From Paramecium tetraurelia (lineage: Eukaryota), in contig CT867985.1 of assembly GCA_000165425.1 (NCBI GenBank), forward strand, positions 558,001 through 622,000: a stretch of DNA of 64,000 nt, read 5' to 3'. The position numbers were made by a program, and so were the translations under genes. Shown here piece by piece: positions 13,501 to 64,000 of the stretch. The notes beneath the pieces are model-generated. The model made no database searches, was not told where the DNA came from, and saw nothing but the letters and a program-made list of their open reading frames with translations. The stretch's first letter is position 1. Every line of letters starts with the position of its first letter.

Positions 13501-15537
13501 ATATTTTTAGGGCATTAGAACATTTATCTTCTTTCCTACTATTTCTTCTTTTGTATATCCAAAATAAGCAGTAAATAATGAATTCATTTATAATATATTA
13601 CCTGTGTCTGACTTCTTAGCACTAACATATATAAATGGGATTTAATCGGTTTCGAAGTTGATCATATCTTTATGCACCTATTAGTTTTTTCTTAGATGTT
13701 CCTTCAATTATCTTGCTTTATTCAATAGATTAACCCCTCCCTTAGAGTCATTCATAACATGAATCATGAAATTACCAAATACTTACATGGTTTATGGCAT
13801 ATTTGAATTGATTTTTTGCATGTTCTCATAATTCTCCCTAGCTTCATTAGTAACTCTACTAATTCTAGCACCAATATTCATTAACCTTCCTAAATCAGGT
13901 TGATCCTCCTTTAATTCAATCCAAAATTCCTTATGTAAATTAGCAGAGAACTTCATTTTCTCTTCACATAAAGATAAGTAGTTTTTAAATGCAATTGCAT
14001 TTACAATATCATCGTCTTCTCCTTATTAAGAATTCATCCCCTTACTCCTGATGTCTTTTTTATATCGATATATGATAAACTCCTAATAAAGAGCTGGCTT
14101 AGTATATTGAGCAAGTTCAAATTATTCTAAAGCCTTAGATTTATTGTTTCTTCTCTCTATCAAAAATAAAGCATAAAAGATTCTCAAATATGTTGAATTT
14201 GGAAACTTCTTCAAACCTTAAACGAACATCCTATCTAATTCTTAGATCAATCCTCTTATAATTTCATCAATGTCATTCTAACCTCCCTTCTTCCTTTGTT
14301 TTAACTTTGTTTTTAAGGGACAATCATCATAATTGCAAGTCTCTTTGTGTTTTTCTATATAACCAACAAGTAACATATAAGAGTTTCTATCCTTATCTTA
14401 ATTTTGTATTAGTTGCAACACATATCTGATGTGACTCCAAATTTACTCTCCACTTCTGAATTTCGTTTAAGATTTAACGAGTGTCTCAATTTTAGATTTC
14501 TTCGTCAGCAGCATTATACTAATTATAAATGGAACACCTATCAACCAGGCAATAAATCCTCCAGTAAAATCAGTAGATTCCAATATTTTACAAACTAATA
14601 ACATGAAACAAGCCCATAAATAAAGTGTGCTACATATGCAATAAAATAATCCAACTTAAAAATCGTAGTAAGGATCGTTAAAATTGTATTATTTAAATAG
14701 CCAAAGTGATAAAATAAAGGAAGTGATAACCATAATCCATGCTTGTTCAGGATAGTTCGGTCTAAGTAAACTAAACATCAATTAACAAGTAATTTTATTT
14801 GTAATAAATGCCACTTCTCCATTTGAATCCTGTCTTGCAGATCTATCATTTGTATTCATAGCTGGTTCAAAAAAGGCATATGCAACAATACTGCAAATAA
14901 TTGAAAAAAATATGATGAATGTAAGATCTAAAACAGCATGAAATGTGTGCCAGTCTTGCCAACATTCAACAAAAATGTTATTGTAACCATATATGATGTA
15001 TTTTCCTGTGTCTGGATCTACGTAGCATTACAAAATAGATGTCAAGGTCTCTGTGATAGGTAGAAATCCTACAGTTACCACAAAGGAAGTAATCTTCTTT
15101 AATAACAACAGTGGCCAGAGCCAATAAAATCGATTACGAGAAAATGAGTAGGAAACATAAATAATGTCTAGAATGATCAACAAAATAAAAAATAGCAATA
15201 TGTAGACAGTCATTAAAAGAGATTCATAAGTTAAACTTGGAATGTAATTGCTTATTTGAAATAAGTTTTAGACTTGAGTGATAAATTCCATAAAAGTGTC
15301 TTACTTCCAAAGGTAATAGATTGTAACATAAAATGGAAATTGATGCATCTGAAAATAATCAAGAGCATTGAAAAAATAGAATCCAAACATTCCCTCTTCT
15401 TCATCTTCACTATTACGAATAACAAAAAGAACTTAAAAGGTAGTTAATTTTAGTTGTTCTAAGTAATAATCAATACCTCTCTTTTAGGTGCCCATCAATA
15501 AAGCATCATCAATTCCCTGTTTTTCTGAATCTTACAT
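10592..15537 (-). CDS. Large multi-pass membrane protein with a central PAS domain (TmcB/TmcC-like protist family)
   Basis: N-terminal hydrophobic helix cluster; PAS segment MNSLFTAIFGYTKEEIVGKKINVLMPQKYAENHD..FKHKNGYLFP (~13370-13600); further TM segments; C-terminal IWIPFLNGLNTQINQTIEMLNMIP; TGA at 10592-10594. Confidence 0.75.
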
Positions 15538-33916: not shown

Positions 33917-36900
33917 ATGAAACAAACAAAAGAAGAAAGTGTAAAATTGTATTTAGACTTCTATGACAAATATACTTGGCCACTAGAGATAGCTGAAACT
34001 TTGCTAGAAGTCAGACAATATCTTACAGAATCCACAATATTGTCCCTCTTTCAAAATTTCTACTTTTCTCATAAAGGATAGCGAATCAATGAGTACAGTG
34101 AGTTTTCCATTCCCGACGGAGGAAAGTTGCAAGTGTTATTAGGTACAGGTTTCAATAATCATATAGATGAGTTTAATGAAAGAACAGCTAGATTTCATTT
34201 AAGAAGAGTCTAAGAAATAATTGCCAATCTATCACATTATCAATATCTTTGCAAAGGCAAAATTTCGAATGAAGATTCATTATCACTAAAAGAAATAGGG
34301 GATTTGTAATTAAACGATATCCTCCAACCAGCTATCAAACCAACCTTACTCTTAAATGATGACAATAAGGCTATTAAATAGAACGTGTAATAGTTGGGGT
34401 TGTCATCTTTCAATCCCCCTCCTCTTTCGCGAAAATTAAAGGGTATTGGACACAACAATAATTAGGTGATCTCTTTTATATCGTCCTTAAAACCATTGAG
34501 TCAGTTGAACTGATAATAACAGCCTCGAATTTAGGTTTCTATGTCAATAGCTCTTAAGGGAGAACGTTTGAGTCAACTCAAAAAAGTGATTGCTACTACA
34601 ATCTGATAGATTTGATTGTGGATCACAGTCCCTCATTTAAGTAAACTGATCCATTTACATAATATTAGAAAGGAATTAATTAATGCGATCCCAGAGTAAT
34701 AACAACCTGCATTACCAGCTACTATAAAATATAATCATAAGTGGTTGTCAGTGCCTGAAGTTCCTTTGACATTGGATCATTAAAGAAGTGAGAGTTGGGC
34801 ATTGGATTTACATGGATTTGATGTTTCTAGTTTGAGAGATTGGAATGAAGAATTGTCAAGTCTTTCGTTCATTGCCCAAAATTGATTTAATTCAAAAATT
34901 GAATAGAGACAAAGCATTATCAAAGGTCTATGGAGACTTTGTTGAAGCTGCAGTTAGAGGAGCTTGTGCTGTTGTCGATAAAATTATCTAGCCTTTAAAT
35001 CCCATGGATGTCGAATGCTAATAGGTTTACGTTTACAATCAGATATTCTTTAGTTTTGCTATGGAAACACCAGAAGATTTTAGAGTATTTAAAATTATAT
35101 AAATTAAAGTAAGAAAGTGGTCCTGATGCTACACCAACAGTCTCAACAACTAATTGCGATTTTAGAAATTTGTAGATTCTCCATAAATTAGACATTCCTG
35201 GATTAAGTGTTTTGAATACTTGTTTAGTTGATTATAAAGGGAGAAGAGTTATTGCATAGTCCATTATACCAGGAATACTCAATAGTGATCATAGCAATTG
35301 CACTTAGTATGGTTCAATTGATGATGGAAAGACCATTCAAAAATCTGAAGAGTTTCACAAAGTCATGTCAAAAACATGTGAATTCTTCCATCTTGATACT
35401 GATATTGTATTTCTTGACAGCAACCAACAAAAGTATTCCATGGCTGGAAGCATAGAAGTCAAAGGTATCATGGGATCAGATAAAAGAATGTATTTGCTCG
35501 ATCTTTTAAGACTTTCTCCAAGAGACTATAATTATTAAGGAGAAAACAATTAATGTTGTGTTTTGAGATATGAATTACTTCAAAATTATTGGGTTGTTAA
35601 TACTATTTAAAAAATTAAACAAAATAATAGTGATGACCCTAAAACATAATAGGAAGCATATTAAAATATTTAAAATCTATTGATTGGCAATCCTAAGGAA
35701 GGATTAAAGTTGAACCCAGCTTTGGGCACTAAGACCGCATTATAAACCTCAGAGAAATTAACATAATAGGAGGAGGATTTAAAAAAATTGGCTACATTTT
35801 TATTAAATTAAGCAATTCCTCAACTGATTTAAGAATTATCATAACCAGAAACATCAAGACACTCAGATCTAAGCATCTCAGACATTTTCCATTCTCATGG
35901 AGTCAATATGAGATATCTTGGAAAAGTAATCAGTTTTATTCGTTCTGAAGAATAACCCTCTTTAAGACTTACTCTGGAAAGAGTTGTCTTTGCTAAGACA
36001 TTAAAACACATTTTTAGAGAATCCATGAGATAGGCACCTCAAAATTAATTATCTTAAATCTTGAGTCATCTTTTAAATGTAATATTCTCTAATTCCAATC
36101 CTTCAGTTAATAATAATAAATAAGAGGAGAAGAAGAAAAAGAAGAAGAACAAAAATAAAAGTACTCAAAATGGTGATAAACCTCACTTTCGATGTTTAAT
36201 TTAAGCCAACAATTATCAATATCCCACATACTAAGAGGTTTGGGATTAAATCAATAAGATTGCAGAAGCCAGATATTAACATAAAATAGATTCATCTATA
36301 TTGAATAAGAAAGGGTTCCATAAATTATCCTGTTTAAGAGAGCTATGTTAATAAATAGGATTACAATTGGTAGCTCGAGACTACCATGATTTCTAACCTT
36401 CTGATATAGTAGGAATCCAGCCAATTATCAAATTTATAGAGTAAGTATCAGAGGATGCTAAAAATAATATAGAAATTGGTCAAAAGTATATGCTTGAACA
36501 TTAAAATCTTCATCAAGCTTTAGAATCTTATCTTACTGCATCACAAATAATATTAAATTTACATGGTTAGATGCATAAAGAATTGGCAAATTGCTATTCC
36601 AAGATTTCAGCAGTCTATTTGAGAAAATAGGAATATGATGCAGCCATACACTTCTAAAAGCAAGCCATTTAGATTTATACTGCAATCTACGGTTATGATC
36701 ACCCTTTAACAATATAAGCTATAACAGCTTTGTCATTATATTACTTTTCGACCAAAAGTTATAAGGAAGCTTTCAATCATATGCTGCATACTTTATATCT
36801 TGCCAATTTAATTGGAGGGGAAGGCTAAGAAGTATTTAATCAATATACAAATTTGTCATTGCTTTATTCAGAAAGTGGTTAGCATTAGAGTGCTTTGAAC

Positions 36901-37501
36901 TGCTTATTTGAAGGACTGGAGAAGTGTGAATCATTGTTTAAGTCTTTCTCAGGGACAGAGACCTAATAGTACAAATTGAGAATATCTGGATATTATTCAG
37001 CGATTGCTTTGGAACATGGTGAAATTGGAGACTTCTAAAAGGCAGTTGAATTCTAAGAAAGAGCATCTGATCTATTAAAGAGAGTAATATAATGTATTAA
37101 AATTAGACTCTCAAGCCTGAAGACACAAGAGTCAAGGAAGCAGATGCTTTATTAGCCAACTTAAAAAAGGCTTTGAATGAAAAAAGAAAAGACACTCAAT
37201 AATCAAATTTAGGTATTCTAATTTTTCTATAAATCATAGATAGCAGAAGATAATTTGGTACCAATCGCAATTAGTAATTAAAAACAGAATAGTAAACCTA
37301 ACAAATATCAGAGGAAACATATGTAGAAACTGATAAGGTAAAAATAAGTTTTATTTTTCATAGGAAAGAGAGGCTTTATTGTAAAAATTAAGAGCAGCCA
37401 AATAGAGTATGAAATTCAAGAATAAAAACCAAATGGATATAAATCGATATATTCTTGCTTAATAACTTTATAGACAATAGCAACAATAGCAGAAAGAGTG
37501 A
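33917..37501 (+). CDS. CLU1: Clustered mitochondria protein (CLU/Clueless/TIF31), one apparent +1 frameshift
   Basis: SSFNPPPLSRKLKGDLFYI, RDWNEE, DFVEAAVRGA, VDYKGRRVIAQSIIPGI, KGIMGSDKRMYLLDL, HSHGVNMRYLG and C-terminal TPRs; frame shifts at ~34856. Confidence 0.92.
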
Positions 37502-47439: not shown

Positions 47440-50400
47440 ATGACCATAATTCATAGGTTTATTTCTTACTGTTATTTATGGCTACCAAAGTAAATTTAGA
47501 AATCAGTCTAAAAAACGCTATTTTAATAACAGGAAAATGGTTAGGTTTATAAAGTATTAAATGTGTAAATTCATAGATTGAATTTTCCAATGGAGAAGTG
47601 CAAAAGATAATAAATTTTGAAAATACAATCAATTATATATAATTTGTTGGAGTAAAGAATTGTCTTTTATCTTTAGTCATTCCAAGTTATTAAAAAAATG
47701 ATTGATTTAATAAAAAGAGTCGAAAATTTGATCCTTTTAATTATATTAGTCATTGCATTATCAGGAAAAACTTTTTATTAAGATTTTACTGAATAAATAA
47801 TAGTTTTTTATTCATTGACATGTTACTTTTTAGATAAGCTTTAATATTTAGTAAACTTGCTATTAATCAGTTATAAACTAAGAAAACCAATAATCTATAG
47901 TTAATAATTCTAAATGTCGAATATTTTCGAAGTTTCCTAATATTTCTGAAGAAGAAATTTAACAAATGGAAGAAAAAAATTAAGATTATTTAGAGTATGA
48001 TATTATAAGTATTTAGATTCAAATCCTACAAATCAATAAAATGGTCAGAACTATAATTGGGAGATATTGTATGTCTAAAGAGAGGGAAGTAGAGTCCTGC
48101 TGATCTTCTCATTTTAGACTCAAGTTAAGAGGAGCTTCTAGTTGATTTTGAAGTGCGTACTGCATGTTCTTGTACATTTGTTAACATTAATCACAACACA
48201 AAAGGTAATATAATGGATTTCATTACAAAACTAAATGGACAAATCTCTTTTAGTATATAAGAGTCGCCTGTAGGGAGTATAAAATTAAAAAATGATCCAA
48301 AAGCTACTTCATTTAATAAAAAAAATATGATTTTGAAGGGAGAAACGCTGGATAGGGTAGACTGGATTTTTGGAATGGCAATTAGAGTTGGAGAGGATTG
48401 CTGTTATGGTTAAACAACTCTAAAGAAATAAAACTATTCATAAAAAAGCTGGATAGTAGAATTTCAGACTTACATCTCTTATACTTGTTGGATCTTATTT
48501 TCAATATGTTTTATATCTAATATGGTTTTTTCATCCTTTTTTATACGTGAGTATTTTTTTAAAAGTCTAATTTACTGCTTGTTAATATTTCCTTAGAACT
48601 TATAATTGTTAGAAAAAATATGTTATTTTTTTATTATTATCAAAAATAATAAAGCATTTTATAAGGAATAGTAAAAGGTGAAAAATAAATACAAAGTTAA
48701 AAAATAGTAAAAGTTAAGAGCAAATGATTATCCAATAGTTCTTAAATCATAAAATGATAGGAAAATACTAATGCCTATAGAAAAATATTTTAATTTGCCA
48801 CTATTATCATTTCAAAGACAAACATAATTATTAGGGTTCAAATCTCATAATAATAATGAGACAGGGCTTATGATGTTAACTTCATAGAATGTCTTAGATC
48901 TTATTAGGACTGATATTCTAATTTTGGACAATCCAAAATTTTTATTTAAGGCCAAACCTAAAGTAGTCTAACTTGTTGAAAACTTTAAAACATACCATTT
49001 TAGTTATAATAAACTTAAAAATTTGGTGAGAAATGCTTCACCAAAATAAAAGACGAATTGTGACAAATTATTAATTGACACTAATAGATAATAAACATAA
49101 GATGAAATGAAAACTTTAGATATTGATCTTTTGATTTCTGAAAAAAGAGTTCCTGATCTCAGAAATTGTACTGATATTTTATTAGCTTCAATCTAGATTT
49201 AGAAAATAGGGAATATTAAAGATAACAACTAAAAGGATTAAAAATAAAATGATACAAAATTGAATAATGGCATAGGCAAGAAAAAGAGTGCCAGATACAT
49301 TTTTGATTCTTCTTTTGTTAAACACTAATAAAATAGCAATTAAGTTTTTGACAACAGTAAAGATGCATCCAATCATAATATCTCTTAATCTTTCTAATCA
49401 TCACATATTGGATTGTAAAAATAAAAAAATCAATTTGTCAAGCCTGGAACTATTATTAAGCAAAATCCTAATTTTAGCCAGATGTCCTAAAAAAAAATTA
49501 ACGACCTAAACTCTGATAGAATTATAAGCGAAAATTATAATGAATAGGACTTTATTGATATTCTTTACAGCCAAGATGATAGAATATATAATGAAATTTT
49601 AGTGATGATGCTTCTAACAAATAGTATTATAAGTGTGTTTAATGAAAAATTAAATAAATTAGAATTTATCTTTGAAAATAGTTATGATGAATCCATTCTA
49701 TAATTTTGTGAATTACTTGATTATAATCTAATTTGTTCAACAGAATAGGAGAATACTAAATAAGAATTAAATAGCAGAACAATTATAAAAAAGGTTATTT
49801 CAATTGGTACCAGTTCCAAAGTCTTTGAGATTCTAACTTTTTTAGAACCTACAGAGAATAGGAAACACATTTTATCAGTATTAGTTAGAGATCCAGAATC
49901 ATTTTAGTTAGATGAAGGTGCATTGTTATATACAAGAATTGAAACAAATAATCAGACAGAAAATAAATATCATGAAAATTTATAAGAAATGAATTGGGAC
50001 GGATTAAAAACATTTTTATATTAGAAAAGGTAATTAGGATATTCCTAAACAAATGATATCTTGAAAAAATTATCCGCTATCTCAGAGACATATGGAAATA
50101 GATCTCATGAAATAGAAAAACTATTCATTGAACTTGAATCTAAGAGTGAACCTATTTTTGCTATTGGAATATCATCAACAAAATAAAAATTATTATAGCA
50201 TTCATCTTAAGAATTCATATAGGAATAGGTAAATTAAGAAAGAATCTTTTTCACCTTATAAAATTATAACATCAAACTATGCATCATTATACCTGATTCT
50301 TATGACGATTTAATGCTTTTTGTTAGAACATATTCAATAATCTAATCAAAAGAACAAATTATTGAATTCAAAGAAAGGGACTCTTAATAGTTACAATATA

Positions 50401-53400
50401 AGTTTAGGTAGTATCTTTAAAATCTGATGTCTAATAATATACCAAATTATCAGGATAACTTTATAATTGTAAGTTCTGAAGCATTTGATAGTATTTTAGA
50501 GGATGAATATTTAAAATATCATTTTGTTTTTATATTCTAAATGTCTGGTGGATTAGGTGCTTATCGATTTACAAGTAGATAAAAAGGAAAATTAGCAAAA
50601 ATTCTATAAAAAACTAATTAAAAAATACTCAGCGTTGGAAATTCTTTAGATGATGAATATCTATTTAGTAAATCTCATTTAACAGTTAGTTTAATGAAAA
50701 AAGAATAGGAAATAACTATTATAAATTCAAAATTTGTAGCTTTAAATATTAAATAACTATTAAAGATGATTTTTCTTATTTGCCCTAGATAGATGTAGAA
50801 TTATTTAGCATTTTTAGAAATCCAATTATATAGATGCTTACTATTAGGTTTGATAATATTTATTATTAGCTTTTAATTTGAAGATATTTAACTATTTTGG
50901 CTATTGATATTTTTTTTAATTCCAAGCAATATTTTGTCATCTATTTAGCACTATTTTTTATTGTGTAATCAGAAAGAATAAACGCTTAAATTTTAATCTA
51001 CTTATGTTATGATATTTTAAAGTATAAAGAAGAGAAGTATGTTAAGAGGAATTTTAGGGGTTTTTGTAATAGTTATTATTGATTTAGTATATTTGATTCT
51101 AACTGAATAAACTATTTTATTGGTTATCTCTTCAAATGGTAAAATTGATTAAACATCAAAATCAGTATTACTTTACATAAGCTTAGAATTATTAGATAAA
51201 TCTAAAATTTTATTCCATATTATAAAGAAATATGAAAATATCTATTATAAACTTATGTAATTAACTATTACAATTTTTATATTGACTCTGTTAATAATAT
51301 GTTTTAATTTGGTTTAAGCCTCTACTGATGATTAAAGACTGATAGATGAATTCAATTAATAAAATTTTTTAGCTTTCATTTTCATAAGTGTTTTTCTAAT
51401 TGGTTTATCATTTGTGACTCAAGAGATCTTGGAGATTTATTCGATAAATTTCATGATACCCTCAGAACAAATCACCTTTGAGTAAAACTAAAAAGATATT
51501 TTGGAATTAAAAAAAAAACTAAATTCAAGCAATTCACTTAGCGAAGAAGAAGAAGAAGAAATGCAGTTAATTTTTAATTAAAAAATTAAAAAAATTACAG
51601 ATTAGCTTTTTGATAATAAAGATTTAGTAGATGAAATAATAACTAAATAAATAAAGGGAGATTAATCAGTAGTAGATGAAATGGATAAATTTCAAGGATT
51701 TCAAGATAAAAAAACCGAAAAGGATTTTTAAGACTTCTTTAAATAATAGAACTAACATAAATTTAACATTTTCTATGCTTTTATATTTTATGATATATGC
51801 ATACTAATAATGTACTGTTATGAAATACTTACAAGTAGCGTATTTCCATTATCAATTTTATTAACTGTATTAATTTAATTTATCATTTAACTTTTTATTT
51901 CTCTTTTATAATTAAGGGTGATCACTAATAAAAAGATCTAATAATATTTTTAGTTGCTATCCCTTATTTTAAGATACATTTTTAAAATATTAATAGATGT
52001 ACTTTATATAGGAAATTATCAAGAATTTGTTGGATTCATGTTTAATATCTAATTTATTCTTGCTTTTGCAATAACAACTCAACCAATAGTTCCAATTATT
52101 TTCTATGTTATCTTATAATTGGTCATTTACATAATAGATTTGATAATAAATGGATTTTCAATGAATTTTCTTAATTAAAAAGAAGTGATATATTGCTTAG
52201 TCAAATTTGGGTTTCTATTAGTTGAAATATCATATCCAATTTTTGAAAATGTTTAAAAGTTTCAATTTTTACAGAGATCTTCATATATTTATTAGAATAG
52301 ACTGAATATTGAATAAAAGAAGATAAACTATATTTTAGGTTTATTGATGCCAAGATTTATTTAAGAGAGAATGAATAAAGGTTAGATTTAGATTTAGCAA
52401 GATCAAGGCGATGTTACAATATTATTTTGTGATATTTACCAATTCGACAAGGTTATTAAATATGAATAAGAAAATATATTGAACTTTTTAGATACTCTAT
52501 ACAGAGCCTTTGACTAATTGTGTTAGACGTATGATTTGTAAAAGATAGAGACAGTTGGTAAAACTTATATGGCAGCTGGAGGATTGAAGGATTATGATGC
52601 AGTGATAAGTAACAATATAATCTAAAAATAGATTAAAAAAATGCTAATAGCACAACTAGAGCTTTAGAAACGGCTATAGCTATGATGGATGCTGTAAAAA
52701 CAATGAAATATGGTGATAATCAAGATGTTAAATTAAAGATTGGAATTCATTATGGTAGAGTAATTGCTGGTGTAATTGGAGTTCATAAACCATAATTCTC
52801 ATTGATAGGAGATACAGTAAATACTACAAGCAGGGTTTGTAGCACAGGTGATGCTGGATTCATTACATTGAGTGAATCGGCCTATAACAATATTAAAGAT
52901 ACAACTAAATATTAATTTGATGAAAAGGCAGTGGCTGCTAAAGGAAAAGGGACACTTCTAACATTTCGATTCAAGGTATAACTAAAGGATAAAGATTCAA
53001 CAAGATTAATATCATCTAAATTAATTAAAGATCATTAAGAATCCAGCAATGAAACTAGAGTTCAAGTTATGCCATTAAAAAATCCTGAAAATAAGAAACC
53101 TCCTGCCAAAATTTTGATGAAAAGAGCTTCTGTTATGAATCCAATAGGATTGGGAAATGATCCCAACAAATCCCCTATACTAGTTTTAAGACAGCTCTAG
53201 TAATAGTTATAAAACAAAAAGACGTTTTAAATTATGATCAAGAAAAAGTAATCGATTGATCATGAAACTAAAGAACAAGAAGTCAAACGTTAAAATTCTT
53301 AAAAATCGATATCTAGTTCGAATTAAGATCTAAATTAAGGATAATAAATATAGAATGAAAATCAATCTCAAGTTTAATAGCAGCCCAAGGTTGTAAATAC

Positions 53401-55436
53401 AAATCCAAAAATGAGAAGTAGTATACTGTAACTGCATAAACCACTTAAAAGGGGAAATGAAGATGGAGCTATTTAGCATTATCCATCAACCTTGTAATAG
53501 TTTTCAATGAGTCTATTTTAACCTATTTCAGACATTAGACTTTAACCCTCTTCTAATTAGATCTCGTCCTCACAAAACTAATAGAGCTCAAGTATATAAC
53601 CTTAGTTAAGTGTACTACAATAAAATTCTTAAACTCAAATGGTCTAGATTTTGGAACACCCAAGTAAAGAGAGCATAAAGTAGGTGAGGATTGCAGAGGA
53701 AGCATAAAATTAATAGAATAATCAATAGCCTCAAAGAGGATAAATCAAAAGGAAGGGAACTGTAATAATGGCTGATTTGGTTAATAAGAAAAAAATGATG
53801 AAATCAAACACTAAAATAATTCTACCGGAAGATAAGGAACGACCTCTTAAGTTAGTTTAAAAGGAAAATGAAAATCATTTTGAGGGAAAAGGAAAATAAA
53901 TAGAAAATCCTGGATTTTTTGAAGCTTAAGAGAATCTTATAAAAAAAGAAAATGATTTTGTTGAAAATTCTGATGAAATTGAAATAAATAAAAAATAGAG
54001 CATTTCAAAACTTTAGTAAAGATTAGATTTGATAAAATTAAAGAACATTAAAAAATTTAAATTAGACTTTGATAAAGATTTTGATTATGAATTGAATAAA
54101 AGTTAATACGATAGCAAAGACCATGTATTGTATTATTAGATCTACGAAGAATATAATCTGCAAGAATTTATATAGTTTAGAAAAACATTTATACTGTTAC
54201 TAATTCTTATGATTTGTAAAAGCCTTTTATATTTCTTATTAGACGAATTAAATCCATCAAATAAAATAGAACTAATCATTGTTATTTTATGTCAACTCAT
54301 TGTTAGTGTATTGATTATCTTTCCTTTTTACAAATTCTAAGATCTTTAAGATTTTAAAAAAGCTAAATCTTTAAGTTTAATCTATTTTATAAGCATAAGT
54401 TCATTAAACATTTTAATAGTTTACTTTGTGGATGAATAAGAATTTGAGATAATTTTGTAATTATGTTAGATTACTTCAATCTATATCAACTTATTTCACT
54501 AATAACTTTTTATTCTAAAAGATAAATAATATTTATAAATCATTTACTTTATTCTTTTGATTCTATTAACTGTATATAAAAAGTACATATTGGAAATAGT
54601 ATTTTTCATAATAAGCACTGATGGTTTAACCTATTACTTTGAGCATTAAGTAAATGAAATCCTTGTTAAAAATTATAGAGTGAGTCAACAATTATAAACT
54701 TAAATATTTAAATATGAAAATATTTTGTAATACTTGATGCCTCCTCATGCATTAAAACGATTATTACAACCAGAATCAGATAAAACTGAAACATTTATAG
54801 ATGTTCTAGACCATGCTACTGTTTTATTTGCAGACATCGCTGGTTTTACTAAATATTCAAGCTCTGTTTAGCCTGAAACTGTTGTTGAAATGCTTAGAAA
54901 CTTGTTTCAATCTTTTGATTTATATTGTTAAATGGCATAGATATATAAACTGTTTACTATTGGTGATTGCTATGTGTGTATGGGAGTTTTGGATTACACA
55001 AAAAGAGATCCTGCCGAAGAAGTATTATATTAAATTGATTTAGGCATAAAAAGTACTAGCTTTTGGTCTCAAAATGATATAGATAATTAATGATATCAAA
55101 TAGGATCCCCAATATTAGCATTTAAACATGAGAATAGGAGTGCATACTGGTAGAGTCCTCGGTGGAGTAGTTGGAACTGATGTTGTTAGATATGATATTT
55201 ATGGAGAAGATGTCACAATTGCTAATTTGATGGAGTCATCGGGAACTGTAAGATATTTTATTTAGTTTTAGGAAGGAAAGATGTTAATTAGCGATTATAC
55301 AAAGAATTTGGTTGAATCTGAATATGATGACTTTAAATTTGAATATGCGAAGGATGTTTATATTCAATCAAAGGATATGACAATACCCACTTTTTTTGTT
55401 TCACTTAATGATTTAGATTGTTGTGAAGAAAATTGA
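47440..55436 (+). CDS. Bifunctional-type P4-ATPase-like / guanylyl cyclase (alveolate membrane GC)
   Basis: ATPase-like WSELQLGDIV..SPADLLILDSS, NMILKG and SVGNSLDD; two TM blocks; cyclase domain 1 LFCDIYQF..KIETVGKTY..PQFSLIGDTVNTTSR; cyclase domain 2 LFADIAGF..KLFTIGDCY..RYDIYGEDVTIAN; TGA at 55434-55436. 5' exons approximate. Confidence 0.92.
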
Positions 55437-55476: not shown

Positions 55477-58400
55477 ATGAGTTAAAATAAAGAAAAGGTT
55501 GAATCAGAGCTTTTTCAAATGTATCAGAATGCCATTGATTTGTTGGAAGAAGATTAAATTGCAGATGGCATTGCAATCCTTAAGAAATTGATGAATCACC
55601 CCTCCATAATAAATTAAGAGGATAAAAAGATTCTCTATGGAATTTATATGTCTTTGGCTGAAATATTGGCACAAAGCGAAAATGTTTCTGAAAAATGCGA
55701 AGCCTTAAATTATTATTATTAGAGCACATTAATAGTAGAAAATTGCTGGTAAACCTACAGAAAGATGTCGCTTTTATTTCGTCAACTTGGAATGATGCCA
55801 AGAGCTTTAAATTTAAATTTAAAAGCGTATTTTAACATTAAAATTTTATAGTCTTTAATATTGTTCATAATGCATTCTAACTTAGCCTCTTCTATATTAA
55901 GCTTGTTGCATTAGCTTTTTAATGGATAGTTGGGATGATTTCAATCAATATTTTAAGATGATGAAGGATGATACTAATTTGAAGCAATAGATACAAGAAC
56001 TAGAAAACTACCATTTAACTAAACAAAAAACAGCTTTTGTTAATACATTGTTGATTGAATATAATCAAATTGAACAAAAGCTACAGTCTTTACCTGAGAA
56101 TTAAATTTATTATCTTCTCTAAGAACAACAATTTGAATAAGAGATTTTTTTAGATACTTAAAATATCAGAAAGTTCTTTAAAGATATCAAATGTTTGTTT
56201 CAAATTAATCTCAATTTTAGAAAGAATCCATCTAAAGATAATTATCTAATCGCTAGTACAAGGATTACTGTAACATCAAATCAAAACAAAAAAAAAACTT
56301 TTGTTTCAAAAGAATAGCCAAGTCAAGTAGTTAGATAAATTGAAAAGCAGAAATCAAAACAATCATAATATTAATAATAGTTTAATCTAGATTAAAATAT
56401 CTATAATTCTAATACAAAATTAATCGATCTTATTAAATAAAATTATGGTTGGGATATGGTTTCATTTTCCATGATAAATAACAATACTAAAATATCAAAT
56501 GAGCAGAATGAATATTAAGGGTGTTCCATTTCTAAATTTTTATCTGAACGATTAAGCAACTAAAGTTTCCTTACTGTTATTGAACTTTTAAAGAAATTAA
56601 TTATATTAATTCTACAAGATTTTCTTTCTTATAAATAATCAATTCAAAATTTTAACTTTGTATCCAAAGGATTAATTAATTGTGTTGTTTGGGCTCAATA
56701 TTTCACAAACAAATTGGTGGATGATCCCTTTTTAAAATTGTAACTATTAGAAATTGCTTTTGACGAGTTAAAATCACGTTTCAAAGAAAAAAAGCCTAAA
56801 TCTCCTGAAGAATAAAATAAAATCAAGAATTACATTCTTTTCATCAATAATATGAAATTGGAATTACTACAAACTGATATTTCGAGCATTTTGATTAATA
56901 GCAATTAAAGAAAAGAATATTTGACAAAGTATTCAATCATAATGGCTACCATTCATAGCGATATTCATTTCTTTTAACCTAAAATGGCGAAGCATTTTGC
57001 TAGTTAATTGAAAAACAGTAAATTAAAATAGTAAATTAATGACAAAATACTAGCTTATAAAATAGAATCTGAACTCAAAACCTCAAAGTAAGTTCTAAAG
57101 ATTATTACGTAATGGGAAGAGAGAGAATAAAAATTGGAAGATAATGAAAAAATAAGAACATATATTATATAGGTTATTGAATATTTAAAGTCTAATAAGA
57201 ATAATAATTTATTGTAAAGGTTGTCAATCATTTTTCTAAATTAATTTTAGTTTGCTTGTCGAATTGAGGATTTAAAAGAGATATAAAAGTTTGTGTAACC
57301 CTTGGTGTTGTAAATTTTAAATCTTAATAATTTCGATTTCGAAATAGATATAGGATTCATTTTCCTCAAGTTTTCTTTCGTTTATTCTTTGATAGAAATT
57401 GACTCTAGTGAAATTTTGGCCAAATTTACTGAAATATTTCTAGCATCACCAAATAACATTAATAAATATCTAATTCTTTTAGAAGTACTAAAAATACATA
57501 ATTTTAAACTAAATGATTATTTTAACTTTGTAAATATTGATACTATTTTAATGGAGTTTATTGATATTAAAATAAAATCCAAATAAAAGTACAATTAATT
57601 AGTAGAATTTTTTAAAAATAATATTGAAGCTGATTTAGAGTTAAATTATTATTTACTCCATTTACTAGAATTAAAAATTCAACATACACCTTAATTCATT
57701 GTCTAGCCTAATACACTTGCTATGGAAGTTGATAAATTTGAAACTAAATTACCTCAACCAGACTCATTTTCTGATGCATCAGAAGATGAATTGGAATAGC
57801 CATGTTAGTATAAAAATGAATTCAAAACTATGGTATTAGAAGAAAGTCAAATTGAATCTTCTTTTAGGATAACTAAAAAAATCTTCTAATTTTCAAATAA
57901 AACAGTGGAATTTCTAATTAATCATTCTATTTAAATTAATGTAGGCGACCCTAAGATTATTAATCATATTAAAAGATTTGCTAAAGAATGTGTCAAATGC
58001 GAGTTCGGCATGAGTACTAATGAATTAAGTACTTAACTATATCAAATAGTAATCTAAAAATATTATCTCTAAGCTGAATTCAAAAAAGAGTTGACAAAAA
58101 TAGAACTACAATTTTTGGGTTATTTTTTACCTCATTGCATCAAGACTGTTTCAGATTTCAAATAAATCAATGAATTTTTACTAACCAATGTATATCCATC
58201 ACTTAATAAGCAAATTGAACAAGAAATCGGTGTATTTGTAGAAGAATTAGAATCATATATGTTTGATAATCAAGAGTTAGCATAAAGCTTTCCACTTGAG
58301 GAACATTATAATAACATAAAGAATTGGAAAATTGAAAGTGATTATAAAGCAAATTTATTCTATTTGTTATAAAGAGCTCAAGAAATTCTTGATGAATAAT

Positions 58401-60025
58401 CTGAATATTCACAATTTAAGAATTTTCTGTTTGCTCTAGCATATAAGGATTCTTAATTTTTATGGAATGAATTTTATATTACATTATTTGATAAAGCTAG
58501 GAATCATTTATCATAGAGGAAAAAGTCAGATGTAGATTGGTTTAACTGTCAACAAAGAGTACAATCAATAATTTAGAATTATCCTGATTTACATTATTTA
58601 GAAGAGCATTTTATGATAATGGATCTCTTACAATTATAGGAATAATAAAATATCTACTAAACAACAGTTTCTTAATAAAAATTCAATTAAATTTAATAAG
58701 TATATGAGAAATTGTTCATGAAAAAATAAATGATACCAACCAATGTTTTTGATATAAAAAATAACTTTAGACTATTGCTGCTTTAAGAAAAGGTTGTAAT
58801 GAGAAAATATTATAAAATTAATATTGAAGATATTGCATAAAATTTGGAAAATCTTTAAATTCTCAAATCTTTGATTAATCAAATGAATAACCATTAAATA
58901 TTGTATTTCCTTCATTCAAAAGATAGTGAAGTAGAAATTAAATAAGATTTATTAATATCAATATATAAATTTATCAGAAGATATTTAAGACATCAATTAC
59001 ATAATCAATTGAATTAATTGATAGAACTCATTAAGTAAAAACTTCCTTATTTATTGAATCCATCTTAAAATTAACTTTAATTCTAATTTGAACTAGATAA
59101 AAAACATTTTAAAATCCAAAATTTTGATTAGGATTAATTAGAATAGGAAAAAAATACACAATTTTCCAATTTAGAGGTAAACCTAATTCTAAACAATATA
59201 TTAGAGGAATTTATTGGGAATAAAAAAAGATTGATTAGAAAAAAACCATAAAGGTTTTTGATTGAATCATTTTATTATTCTACTCATTTATTATTTCATA
59301 GTAATGCCTCAATTGATTAAGTTTTCAATTCAATTCAATCGGTTTATTTACCGAACACAAAAGACTTAATTTATTATTACAAATCAATTGATAGGTATAA
59401 ATGTGAAAAAGATAAAATTCTTAGTTAGTATTATTTTCATGAACTTAATTTTTCATACTAGAAATCTAAAATATTGAAATTAATCCTTAAAATTTTATTG
59501 AAACAAAAGAAATACAAAGAAATTGTAACACTGTTAGACAAGCTTAACAAAACATATGATTTAAGGTTGTTTTAAGCTGTTATTGGATTATTAACAGCCA
59601 TTAAATATATTGAAGAGAAAATCTTAATTAGAGATATCATCATAAAGGTTGAATCTTTAAGTAAAACTAATGATTTTTTAAAAGATGATCAAATCTTGGA
59701 ATTATTAAATAGAATGTATATAAAATTATATGAGAAAGAGCAATAGGAATAAGGTCTAAATGATGTTGAAACTGAAATAAGTGAAATTAAAATTGAAAAA
59801 GGAAAGAAAATCATAGAGGATATCAAGGCAATAAAAAGGAAGCCAACGAAAATAAAAGATAATCAATAGATTTCCTAATAATAATAATCTTAAATCTAGC
59901 AATCCTAAATTTAGAATTAATAATAATTGTATTAATAGTCAAGTGAATACATTAATGATGAAATAGGCTAATTTAAAACCTAAGAGGGATCTCTTTCGCC
60001 ACTTATTGATTTAGATATTGTATGA
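55477..60025 (+). CDS. ~1500-aa helical protein with N-terminal TPRs resembling CABIN1/Hir3
   Basis: ESELFQMYQNAIDL..ILKKLMNHP..ILYGIYMSLAEILAQ..EALNYYYQSTLI..WQTYRKMSLLFRQLG; 25-nt intron 55827-55851; one long frame to TGA 60023-60025. Family call is by eye only. Confidence 0.55.
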
Positions 60026-60305
60026 TTTAATTTATTTATTAATTCAACTAAAGTGGTTAATGAAATATGGGTTAACATATATAAGTTTTCTAATTTTTAG
60101 TCGCAATTATATTTTATATATATATAACTTATCTTTTAGTCTTTTTGTGAAAAATAATTAATACAATAATTAATTAATTAAATAATTTATTTATTAATAA
60201 AATAATAAAAGGATAATGGCATAATAATCTATTTATTTGCAAGATAAATGAAAAGCATATTTGAGATTGAAAGCTTTTAAAATAAAATAATAAAATATCA
60301 TAGAA

Positions 60306-62513
60306 ATGAAATAAGAGACTTTGAGTAATTCAACAACTTAGACTATTGGAAGTTCCTAATAGACTTAATCACTTGATGAAATAGAAAAATATAATTGTTT
60401 TTGGAAATAAGAAATAATTTTGAGTGATTGTGAAGAGTAATTTGTTTAAATAGTATCTGATGATGAGAGGGATTGCGCTGCTATGGTAAGCTTTGGAAAA
60501 GCACTTAACATCCAACCAACAGATATTTCATAAATAACTGAGATCTTAAACTATTTGGACACCCCGTAATTAAAGATGACTTCTTTGTAGAGTCCATAAA
60601 ATGTTTTGAACTATTTCCTGCCTAATAGTTTTGTATCTACACTAACAGAGATGATCAATCATTACCTTTTAATGGTGTTACAAGAAGATGTAAAATAATA
60701 GCAATAAACTCAATAAATTTATCACAAGAAGAAATACAAAGAAGCTGAGATTTAATTTTACTTAGGTTTGCAAATTTTGTTTGGAGTGTATAGATTTCCA
60801 TCTCTGGATGATTATTGGAATGCTGAATCCTGGTTAAAAGGAGGAGTAGAAGTTACTATGCCAATAGGTAGATTCAAATTTGTAGATCTTCATATTTTTT
60901 CATACTTTGATGAATAATAAAGAGCAAAATTACAATTGGAAGTCAGCAAATTTTCAAAGAAATTAAAATCACTTTATAATCCAGATTAAGAGTTAATTAT
61001 TGTCGAATAAAATCAGAAGGCATACAAAGCATATTACATATTTGATTATGACAGTTCTTAAATTATTGATTTGCTAGTTGTTTGCAACAATGTGAAGAAT
61101 GAGGATAGAATTAACAGAGTGATGAGAATGCTTTATAAGTATTCTAATTAGAATCATGTTACTTACATATTATTTGATCTTAGTTTAGACAAGATAATTC
61201 AATTGGTGGATCAATCTATCTACCCAGTCATTCGCTATTAAAACATCAGCCATAATTTGATTCAAATGCTATAGGATGGAGAGTACGAATTGGATTAATT
61301 ATTTTTAGTTAAATAGGGAACTTAAGTGGATGTTTTCCCATAAAGACGTCTGATATCGAATAGACCTTACATGACTTCTTATGAAAAGATAAAGGAGTAA
61401 TTGCAAGAACACATAACAAATCTATAGTAATTTAGAAGTAACTTTTATTAGTCATCATAATTGAATAATACTGAAGGATTTCATCAATTGAGAGTTGAAT
61501 TTGAAGAATATTTCGAAATTATGATTCATAACACATTTTTATTGATTCAGCAGACATCTCAATCGCAATTCAGACATGATTTAGCTAAGATTCTACTTAA
61601 TGAGAAAGGATAATAGATAGAGAGAGATCGTAATGAAGCCAAACGTAAATTGAATGTCACTTACTAAGAAAACACATCAAATACAGACCAGTTGTCATTT
61701 GGATTATAAAAACAGTATGCTGATCAATTCCATACTCCTATACCTTAGAAATAAGAAGATACATTTAAATATTGTTTGGTGTGTATGAAATTTGAAGGCT
61801 TGACTAAACCATACTATAGATGTTAATTGTGTGAAAAACTCTTGAAGGTCAATAAGATATTCTTGTGTCCATTTCCTTGTTTTGAACTATTTCATAGGAA
61901 TCCAAGTGATTTCATGGTTTGTGATATGAAAATGTTAGAGCCACTAGGAGAAGGTGCGTATTTCAAAAATGAATCAACTATGTAATTGGTTAGTAATGGA
62001 TAAGAAGAAGATGCGAGTGGAAAGAAAAGAAAATATAATAAACCTCCACCTAGAACATTTTGGTCATTCAATAAAGAGATCTACAAACAAGCAAATATCA
62101 ATGATGATCAGAACTTGAATGACATCTTAAATACTTTCAAAAAACCTCAGGTCCCTGCTCCTTCACCAAATTTGCTATAGCCTATTGTTCCTTAAGAATA
62201 ATAAGTATAGACGTCGACTTTGGGACACAAAAAGGATATGAAAGATATTGATCATCTCTTAAATTAGGAAAGAGAGCAGAAGGATAAATTAATAAAGGAA
62301 ATGTAGGAGAGGGATAAACAATTATAAGAATAATACTTCCAATAATAATACGAGAAACAATTGTAAAAGGAATAGGAATCGAAGAAGGGCAAGAAGGCTC
62401 AGAAAGAGAGTGAAAAGAAGAAATAATTAGAGGAACAACTTAAGAATGTCAGTCCTCTTGAGAAATTCATGGAACAAATAAATAAAAGAGCTAAGGTTGA
62501 GGATGTTGAATGA
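60306..62513 (+). CDS. PGML: Domesticated piggyBac-family transposase, catalytically inactive (PiggyMac-like, PGML type), 735 aa, intronless
   Basis: DDE_Tnp_1_7-type blocks SPQNVLNYFLPNSFVSTLTEMINHY, EIQFYLGLQILFGVYRFPSLDDYW, MPIGRF, YNPDQELIIVE, IMIHNTFLL and QSQFRHDLAKILL. Cys-rich domain H..CLVC..CQLC..LCPFPCFELFH, then a coiled-coil tail. No terminal inverted repeats seen. Confidence 0.85.
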
Positions 62514-62602
62514 TGGAATAAATTTATTGGCAAATCATTATATATATATAGAATTAGTATTAGTATTATTTAAGAAATACTGAATTTTTGCATATAATAT
62601 TA

Positions 62603-64000
62603 TCATCTATTGTAGAATAGACCTCCATAATTTCTAGAATATCCATTAGTAGTGCTTTTACTATGATAATCATTCAAAACATAATTGCTTTTTTTAAATC
62701 CCTATTAAACTGCTACTGTAGGATCATATTATTTCAATAAGCCTAAATCCTTCAATTTATAGACATTTTATTCAAGTAATTTATTGTTGATTATCAAGCT
62801 TGCATCTTCTAGGATTGAATCCAAAATATCTCCTTATTTCCTGCCTAAATAACTTCTGCTAGATTGATTCTCAACAAGTAAGGTGTCTTTCAGCTTCTAG
62901 ATTGCAGGATTTGAGTTGGCCATAGAACAGGATCTCCGATTATTGAGTTATAAATAAGGCAGTTTCTCTTAGGAAGATTGCATTAAATTAATTATTCAAA
63001 ATCATTTCACCTAAACCGGTTTAAAATACAACGCAGTTGCCCTTTTCTTTTTCCTATGATGACTGACATCTTTCTGGGGACTTACAAGCTGGCTACCTCT
63101 AAGAATGGTTTAGCGATATTTTCTTATATTTTCAATTATAATTACTTAATGAATTCATATGGAAAAGTAAGAAAGAGACTGAGTTACTTCCATTATTCAA
63201 AGAATTTCAAGTTTATTTTTGTACTTTTAAACAGCCAAGCAGAATTAAAATCAGGATGATAATTTTTGTAATTCTTAATACAATCTATTTCTAAATTAAT
63301 TCTCTAGTTCAGTTTTAATTTTAAGTCTTCTAACAATATTTTATCACTTTCTCTTAAACATTCTTCATCAAATTCTCTTGGATTATGTAATTCTAATATT
63401 TAGACAGTCTAGTTTGTAGGGTGTAATTTTTATCGTATTTACTTAATATTTAAGGCTTGTTTGTTGGGAAATTATCTCCTTGTGATATTTTACATTTTTT
63501 AAAAGTAGTTTGAATGAGAAGCTTTCCAAGATTCTTTTAATTCAAATTCAGAAGAATCTGATGATTCTATTGTTGGGATAGTTAATTAAATCTTATCTGC
63601 ATTATCATTTTATTTAAGTTCCTTAAAAATAGCTCGTCTTTTCCTTTCAAATATCCTTTTATAGGGCCTTCTAGTTTGTAATTAAGGGTACTGATGTTTT
63701 TTGATGACTGAATCTGTGTCTGGATTAAATGTCAGCAAAGGACACTGCTGAATAGTATGTTAAAGGCTTTTGCATGAATAACAATCCATACCAAAATATG
63801 ATTTGTCAAAGATGAGTTGTTCTTTCAATTAGCAATATTATTCATGATCTTCAGGATATTGTTAAAGGACTTTCATGAAGTCTTTTTTTGTGATGAAGAC
63901 CAATTTGCTAAAAGCAACAGAAGTGTATCTTAAAGATGGGATATCATCAAACATAAATTCTCTTAATCCAAAATTATCTCCAGTTTAGAGGGTTGCTAAT
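62603..64000 (-). CDS. 3' part of a cyclic-nucleotide-binding-domain cation (K+) channel-like gene; 5' end outside the window
   Basis: LQTGDNFGLREFM..LVFITKKDFMKVLQQYPEDHEQYC (end of CNBD) followed by the CCHC knuckle CYSCKSLQHTIQQCP, typical of ciliate EAG/CNBD channels; TGA at 62603-62605. Pore region not in window. Confidence 0.72.

Follow-up and report, generated by a model that had tools for sequence, protein, structure and literature searches.

The subject of this analysis is a single open reading frame (ORF) in a stretch of 64,000 nucleotides of Paramecium tetraurelia DNA (contig CT867985.1, positions 558,001 to 622,000 of the forward strand), here called the window, from which all coordinates are counted. 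The ORF at 60306..62513 is almost certainly PGML3a of P. tetraurelia, i.e., the gene for an inactive, piggyBac-derived partner of PiggyMac (Pgm), the catalytic domesticated transposase by which germline DNA is excised from the new somatic nucleus. PGML3a is an already characterised gene rather than a new paralog, since the gene and its function have been in print since 2018 (the published papers are drawn on here in excerpt). An earlier note, made from the letters of the window alone, had called the product a catalytically dead, domesticated PiggyMac-like piggyBac transposase, which agrees with the identity of PgmL3a and with the loss of its catalytic triad. From that loss, and from a coiled-coil tail, the note had also placed the protein in a divergent PgmL group, as the published description of PgmL3 has it, but it had left open which group and whether the paralog was new. 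The membership in the PgmL family stands, and the paralog is not new, as can be seen from the published alignment row, the phylogenetic tree, and the other PgmL3 slots, which are filled.

The exact protein of 735 amino acids (aa) is present in NCBI, UniRef, nr, EukProt and MetaClust, and the deposited protein does not differ from the uninterrupted ORF in any letter. In the published alignment, the PgmL3a-Ptet row equals residues 86-402 of the window protein in 10 of the 10 blocks displayed (out of 12), with consistent numbering; the sites that distinguish PgmL3a-Ptet from PgmL3b-Ptet are FLPNS vs FLPSS, LLMVL vs LLTVL, and EDVKQQ vs EDLKQQ. Later papers used a construct of the Cys-rich domain, PgmL3a(471-550), and an antigen, PgmL3a[aa 438-735], and both sets of coordinates agree with the length of the ORF and the position of its Cys-rich domain. 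The PgmL3 group has been described as having no conserved catalytic Asp, a C-terminal extension rich in coiled coil, and no N-terminal extension (PMC6143343); the window protein has lost the triad, has a modelled C-terminal helix at residues 642-712, and begins its transposase domain at residue 96, without a long N-terminal extension. Thus, in sequence of the displayed blocks, length (735 aa), Cys-rich domain (471-550) and triad loss, the excerpts of the published work give the same gene, and no difference from it was found. The accessions of PgmL3a are GSPATP00000358001 and PTET.51.1.G0010374, and an earlier name is PTMB.169c (supplementary file 2, PMC6143343); a literature search under this older name found no paper.

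The ORF lies on the + strand and runs unbroken from ATG to TGA over 735 codons when translated with NCBI table 6. It contains 57 in-frame TAA or TAG codons (41 TAA and 16 TAG), all read as Gln, beside 20 CAA and 9 CAG. Under table 11, the longest ORF overlapping 60306..62513 is 59 aa, and the frame of the gene has no run free of TAA and TAG longer than 58 codons; because these runs are so short, the gene goes unseen in a standard ORF track. In the spacer upstream the G+C content is about 0.18-0.20, and within the ORF it goes up to 0.27-0.33. No joints were found in the RNA reads anywhere in 55500-64000 and the deposited protein equals the ORF, so PGML3a is intronless. The note's description of an intronless 735-codon ORF in code 6, "invisible in the ORF track", was accurate in each respect. 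The features of the gene are as follows.

60306..62513, + strand: coding sequence of PGML3a, intronless, 735 codons and a TGA stop (ORF and codon counts, exact database protein, RNA reads without joints)
60387-60464, + strand: N-terminal conserved motif, residues 28-53 (conservation across PgmL3a, PgmL3b and PgmL3c)
60591..61010, + strand: N-terminal part of the piggyBac transposase domain, residues 96-235 (Pfam DDE_Tnp_1_7, piggyBat 9c0f match)
60990..61448, + strand: predicted degenerate RNase H-like core, residues 229-381 (AlphaFold2 model, Foldseek)
61002..61004, + strand: codon of V233, at the site of the first catalytic Asp, D1 (piggyBat alignment, published and own alignments)
61170..61172, + strand: codon of L289, at the site of the second catalytic Asp, D2 (published and own alignments)
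61176-61178, + strand: codon of D291, two residues past the D2 column (own alignment)
61446..61448, + strand: codon of Y381, at the site of the third catalytic Asp, D3, in the published alignment (published alignment)
61716..61955, + strand: Pgm-type Cys-rich domain, residues 471-550 (weak zf-Tnp_2 match, conserved Cys and His columns, published construct)
62229..62441, + strand: long C-terminal helix as modelled, residues 642-712 (AlphaFold2 model, tail composition)
60328..62599, + strand: transcribed span, resolved to bins of 284 bases (RNA reads)

Transcription of the gene was followed in three stranded oligo-dT RNA runs of one study (X22, X23 and X24), of which 1105, 1294 and 1278 million letters, respectively, were read, and the raw reads were mapped on 55500-64000. 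The first mates lie on the - strand, which in the usual library type means RNA from the + strand. Over the eight bins of 60328-62599 the depth was 17.9-83.6 in X22, 5.0-20.6 in X23 and 0-2.4 in X24, with means of about 54x, 13x and 0.9x; this variation of about 58-fold between runs shows that PGML3a expression is regulated. The neighbouring bin on the - strand (62600-62883) was steady, at 5.8, 8.1 and 6.5 in the same order, and the upstream gene of 1367 aa (55922-60025) was almost silent, with a depth of 1 or less in all three runs.

Two side observations concern the reads themselves. Between 60587 and 62168 there are minor variant letters at seven places, in about 11-42% of the X22 RNA reads, and loose read ends occur inside the gene at 60571, 60703, 61291, 62080 and 62154, the one at 60703 being 8 bases from a one-codon indel between the PgmL3a and PgmL3b proteins at residue 137/138. 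Most likely, the variant letters and loose ends come from cross-mapping PGML3b transcripts; editing or splicing as their source was judged less likely.

The family of the protein is seen from its N-terminal half. Residues 96-235 match Pfam DDE_Tnp_1_7 (PF13843) with 43.2 bits against a cutoff of 22.4 (E=4.3e-11). In a phmmer search of the PDB sequences the sole match, a weak one, was piggyBat (9c0f; residues 100-234, E=0.029), in whose alignment the piggyBat motif QQLSLDE pairs with QELIIVE of the window protein. An AlphaFold2 model was built from an alignment of 22 sequences, with pLDDT (the model's per-residue confidence) at block means of mostly 80-89 over residues 201-340 and of 83-89 over the core at 229-311. 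In this model the core has the order beta1 (229-236), beta2 (240-247), beta3 (253-260), alpha1 (265-277), beta4 (284-289), alpha2 (294-302) and beta5 (305-311), followed by a beta insertion at 325-345 and then by long helices, including one at 352-381. When the model was compared with the PDB by Foldseek, all three matches with E<=0.001 belonged to the piggyBac family: 9c0f_C (7.6e-9), 9c0f_D (6.3e-8) and 6x67_C (1.7e-7). The match to solved structures is clear only at the level of the fold. By its predicted fold, the window protein would carry the RNase H-like core of the piggyBac fold. The piggyBac architecture is kept, with an N-terminal helical region ahead of this core and a Cys-rich domain after it.

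Beyond the core, the C-terminal part contains a Cys-rich domain in the variant arrangement of the Pgm type. The Pfam match to zf-Tnp_2 at 477-530 is weak (E=0.036, 15.1 bits) and, as it scores under the cutoff of 24, is insufficient on its own for such a domain; in the alignment of 22 sequences, H476, C490, C493, C506, C509, C521, C525 and H530 are each at least 90% conserved. The model of this region is poor (pLDDT <50 over 448-648). The tail, residues 641-735, consists of 65% E, K, Q, R and D, and residues 642-712 are modelled as a single helix (pLDDT block means of 68-79 over 651-710). The piggyBac core blocks, the His/Cys-rich domain and the coiled-coil tail that the note had read from the translation are thus all recovered, the first by an above-cutoff Pfam match and by fold matches to piggyBat and piggyBac, the second by the conserved columns and the weak zf-Tnp_2 match, and the third by the modelled helix and the charged composition.

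Near the N-terminus there is a further motif, at residues 28-53, in which K28, Y29, N30, C31, W33, K34, Q35, E36, L39, S40, D41, C42, E43, E44, Q48, S51, D52 and D53 are at least 90% conserved across PgmL3a, PgmL3b and PgmL3c. It is nearly invariant, though the three proteins are only about 50% identical overall, and it is modelled as disordered (pLDDT 26-28). The published passages on PgmL3 that were met hold no description of it.

The catalytic residues have been lost from this core. In the published alignment (supplementary file 1, PMC6143343), the columns of the three catalytic Asp are occupied in the window protein by V233 (D1), L289 (D2) and Y381 (D3): the motifs LTIDE/ITIDE, CDN/MDN and GGV-D, which hold the Asp in the rows of Trichoplusia ni (T. 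ni) piggyBac and Pgm, stand against LIIVE, YIL and SNF-Y in the row of PgmL3a-Ptet. The D1 and D2 columns were reproduced in our own MAFFT alignment of the 22 sequences (14 PgmL3-family proteins, two PgmL5, two PgmL1, and four piggyBac-like proteins from outside Paramecium). All 14 PgmL3-family proteins have V or I at D1, where the two PgmL5 have I, the two PgmL1 have Q, and three of the four non-Paramecium proteins have D; at D2 all 14 have L or M, and three of the four again have D. Our alignment sets D3 three columns later than the published one, at S384; as the stretch 376-386 (FRSNFYQSSQL) is without an acidic residue, D3 is missing in any register. Every one of the 14 PgmL3-family proteins has a hydrophobic or aromatic residue at D1 and at D3. 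With the DDD triad absent, the protein is, as read from its sequence, a derived, inactive member of the piggyBac family and not an active transposase. The note had read the D1 motif as LIIVE, and V233 does pair with the Asp of piggyBat QQLSLDE and of the T. ni and Pgm TIDE; it had seen no recognisable D3, and there is none at either Y381 or S384. Its D2 motif, TYILFD, is present as a string and contains the D2 residue, L289, but the final D of that string, D291, sits two residues past the catalytic column.

Some points weigh against the reading of this gene as PGML3a with an inactive piggyBac core. The DDE_Tnp_1_7 match spans profile positions 1-133 of 349 only, i.e., the first third, and the RNase H part is recognised by the predicted fold only, in a model with a pTM (its overall fold score) of 0.49 and an overall mean pLDDT of 56.5. 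The comparison with the published PgmL3a row covers 10 of its 12 blocks, and the assignment of the accession rests on elimination together with that row, not on a direct accession match. The variation in RNA depth does not, by itself, show autogamy specificity, as the conditions of the runs are unspecified. Finally, 13 of the 14 PgmL3-family proteins have D or E at position 291, two residues beyond the D2 column; because an acidic residue is kept there, a total loss of metal binding in PgmL3a is inferred rather than demonstrated.

This last point leads to the alternative that survives best, in which PgmL3a is not purely architectural but retains a non-canonical enzymatic activity, e.g. via D291 or other acidic residues. 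The conserved acidity of position 291 would fit such an activity, as would an RNase H-like core that is well conserved and confidently modelled. However, P. tetraurelia PgmL3b, whose function has been published as redundant with that of PgmL3a, has Tyr at position 291, none of the 14 proteins carries an acidic residue at D1 or D3, and mutation of a single triad residue abolishes the activity of T. ni piggyBac in vitro (cited in PMC6143343). A retained activity is, therefore, very improbable, and an inactive PgmL3a is preferred.

Slightly less probable again is that the ORF is a PgmL3 gene but another one: PgmL3b in a different gene model, an ortholog of PgmL3a from another species of the P. 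aurelia complex, or an extra paralog that had escaped notice. In favour of such a reading, sibling species have proteins that are 90-95% identical to the window protein. All five word-indexed homologs are proteins of the P. aurelia complex. An exhaustive library search gave 25 proteins at E<=0.001, of which the nearest full-length ones beyond the PgmL3-like proteins and fragments are PgmL5b (GSPATT00017164001, 8.7e-8) and PgmL1 (GSPATT00004877001, 1.3e-7). Within P. tetraurelia, PgmL3b is GSPATT00003675001 and PgmL3c is GSPATT00000770001 (supplementary file 2, PMC6143343). PgmL3b (P0011) sits in the 90% cluster of the window protein but is only 86% identical to it over 644 aa, so the window protein is not PgmL3b; PgmL3c (P0039) is in the 50-52% cluster or clade, at about 52% identity. 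A maximum-likelihood tree of 14 PgmL3-family proteins, for which midpoint rooting only was used and in which the deeper branching of a and b is unresolved, splits an a/b clade from a c clade at 100/100. In this tree, one P. primaurelia and one P. pentaurelia protein form a group with the window protein (98/99), and PgmL3b pairs with a P. octaurelia protein (100/99), apart from the window protein. This is the pattern of ohnologs, with a close twin (b) from the recent whole-genome duplication (WGD) and a more distant paralog (c) from the intermediate one. As named proteins of P. tetraurelia already take the slots of PgmL3b and PgmL3c, only the "a" slot is left. An ortholog from another species is opposed by the published P. 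biaurelia PgmL3a row, which differs from the window protein (e.g. FLPSS, EDLKQQ, VIYIM) where the P. tetraurelia row is identical in all 10 blocks. It is also opposed by the database sources: P. tetraurelia PgmL3c and PgmL1 (P0027) share the source set of the window protein, including EukProt and MetaClust, and none of the proteins of other Paramecium species listed alongside these three has an EukProt or MetaClust entry.

As a separate observation on the twin, the deposited PgmL3b model (649 aa) diverges from PgmL3a after about residue 615 and is without the coiled-coil tail. The orthologs in other species are 735-739 aa long, and the short 3′ end of PgmL3b (~616-649) is probably an old gene-model error, not a real truncation.

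The idea of an ordinary or recently decayed piggyBac transposon copy in place of a host gene can draw on the transposase profile and fold and on an inverted pair that brackets the ORF (60111-60127 / 62538-62554), yet it is of negligible probability, since the pair is a (TA)n run and also a direct repeat, no piggyBac-like ends were found, the gene is single copy in the window, full-length orthologs exist in at least five P. aurelia species with a mean column identity of 77%, the unbroken frame is transcribed, and the catalytic Asp are all gone. That self-complementary pair, of 17 nucleotides, is the only candidate for terminal inverted repeats (TIRs) flanking the ORF. A scan of the whole window with a motif that we take to represent piggyBac-style ends gave 15 matches vs 19.9 expected, with none beside PGML3a. 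The single copy was seen by tblastn in code 6, and the orthologs are of syntenic size. A new paralog, an active transposon and a pseudogene were all rejected as candidates, on the grounds given for these alternatives.

The genes around PGML3a are ordinary ones, as the note had said of them when it also reported no TIRs, and both statements are supported, by the Pfam matches of the neighbours and by the repeat and end-motif results above. Immediately upstream is the 1367-aa ORF (55922-60025, + strand), which has no Pfam match; further away are a P-type-ATPase-like/guanylate cyclase gene (47820-55093, + strand), a CLU/eIF3-p135/TPR gene (34930-37176) and a TmcB-TPR/PAS gene (11959-15537). ARAGORN found no tRNA genes in the window. 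The interval 47820-55093 consists of two abutting code-6 ORFs, the first of 1621 aa and the second of 803 aa. The N-terminus of the first is E1-E2 ATPase-like (25.6 bits, under the cutoff of 28.1), the Guanylate_cyc family matches the second in two stretches, and one guanylate cyclase catalytic domain is split at 52682, with profile positions 4-82 at the end of the first ORF and 85-180 at the start of the second. The pair looks like one gene broken by a short intron or a frame change; presumably, it resembles the ciliate P-type-ATPase-like guanylyl cyclases. Downstream of PGML3a, a 126-aa ORF without a Pfam match (62603-62983, - strand) lies in the steadily transcribed stretch of the - strand. 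The bin 62884-63167 has - strand depths of 4.4, 4.8 and 4.3, and because the next bin (63168-63451) has a depth of 0, this ORF appears to be separate from the - strand gene at 63007-63999.

Since the gene is PGML3a, its biology can be taken from published work. PGML3a belongs to a set of nine PiggyMac-like genes that fall into five groups, of which PgmL3, PgmL4 and PgmL5 typically have a C-terminal extension rich in coiled coil (Bischerour et al. 2018, eLife 7:e37927, PMC6143343). According to the same paper, all PGMLs are induced together with PGM during the development of the new macronucleus (MAC), with a maximum at T5-T11 of autogamy; PgmL3a-3xFlag is seen in the new MAC as it develops, and HA-PgmL3a co-precipitates with MBP-Pgm at 500 mM NaCl. 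Viable progeny falls to 30% after knockdown of PGML3a, and none is obtained after knockdown of PGML3a and PGML3b. The two proteins, which are twins of the recent WGD, are needed for the stable nuclear anchoring of Pgm, whose nuclear signal is down by 50-60% in the PGML3 knockdown. In the double knockdown, excision of internal eliminated sequences (IESs) is inhibited genome-wide, save for 3511 IESs that are longer on average and 89% of which are also excised in a PGML1 knockdown; the residual excision is error-prone (PMC6143343). The experiments that the note had suggested (autogamy induction, localisation to the new MAC, and IES retention on knockdown) are therefore already published, as is the pull-down with Pgm, and its proposal of an architectural subunit of the DNA-elimination complex is supported through the identity of PgmL3a and the published work.

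Later work has extended this picture. The Cys-rich domains of all PgmLs keep the zinc ligands of the Pgm type; they have been reported to show no DNA binding in vitro and to bind the H3(1-19) tail whatever its methylation (PMC8086355). PgmL1 and PgmL3 have been reported not to co-precipitate with developmental condensin I and to depend on it barely for their localisation, and thereby define a second subset of the machinery (bioRxiv 10.1101/2025.10.03.680307).

When PgmL3a is set beside its relatives, the ohnologs PgmL3b and PgmL3c share its architecture, and also its substitutions in the D1, D2 and D3 columns. PgmL3b differs in being 86% identical, in having Y in place of D291, and in a deposited model without the tail; PgmL3c differs in its identity of about 52%. 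In RNA interference PgmL3b is redundant with PgmL3a, and PgmL3c, whose expression is the lowest among the three, is reported to give no phenotype on knockdown (PMC6143343). Pgm and PgmL3a share a piggyBac-derived core, a Pgm-type Cys-rich domain, developmental expression and localisation to the new MAC, whereas Pgm (as read from the published alignment only) keeps DDD in ITIDE, VVMDN and GGV-D where PgmL3a has V, L and Y. Among solved structures, T. ni piggyBac (6x67) and Myotis piggyBat (9c0f) match the model of PgmL3a best, with a Foldseek probability of 1.00 and target-normalised TM-scores of 0.44-0.47. The identity in these structural alignments is 12-13%, and PgmL3a is without the DDD triad and the TIRs, and carries an additional C-terminal helix. 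The Tetrahymena protein Lia5 is not known to keep catalytic residues. Lia5 and the human PGBD proteins stand in the same published alignment as domesticated relatives (PMC6143343). The Cys-rich domain of PgmL3a is of the Pgm type, whereas active transposases have a PHD-like arrangement, CxxC-CxxC-CxxH-CxxC (PMC8086355).

The association of PgmL3 with PgmL1 raises a further, tentative possibility: PgmL3a may pair directly with PgmL1 via an interface like that of the piggyBac dimer, to form a condensin-I-independent module that positions excision boundaries. We regard this as rather unlikely to be correct as it stands; in the literature, such a module is inferred from shared knockdown phenotypes only. 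A complex prediction with PgmL3a 90-550 and PgmL1 78-545, run without supplied alignments, returned "weak support" with a score of 0.60 (runs of 0.60, 0.61 and 0.59), against 0.02 for the best of three controls; at least 39% of contacts coincide between the runs, and the pLDDT of the partner is at least 65. In the calibration of the method, 51 of 78 solved complexes and 2 of 108 mismatched pairs attain the mark, and scores of 0.60 or less comprise only 5 of those 78 solved complexes and all four passing mismatches (of 180). The pass may reflect a likeness to the solved dimers of the piggyBac family (6x67, 9c0f), and it does not tell which member of the family binds. Thus the predicted pairing would serve as a lead only.

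For the gene itself, a reading of the raw sequence alone was sufficient to recognise correctly a gene in code 6, its family, and the loss of its triad. Its biology was published in 2018 and was extended by papers in 2021 and 2025. According to the authors' proposal, PgmL3 would be a non-catalytic, architectural subunit which helps to place Pgm-dependent cuts on the correct TA boundaries, and it would act with PgmL1 in the subset of the machinery that is independent of condensin I.

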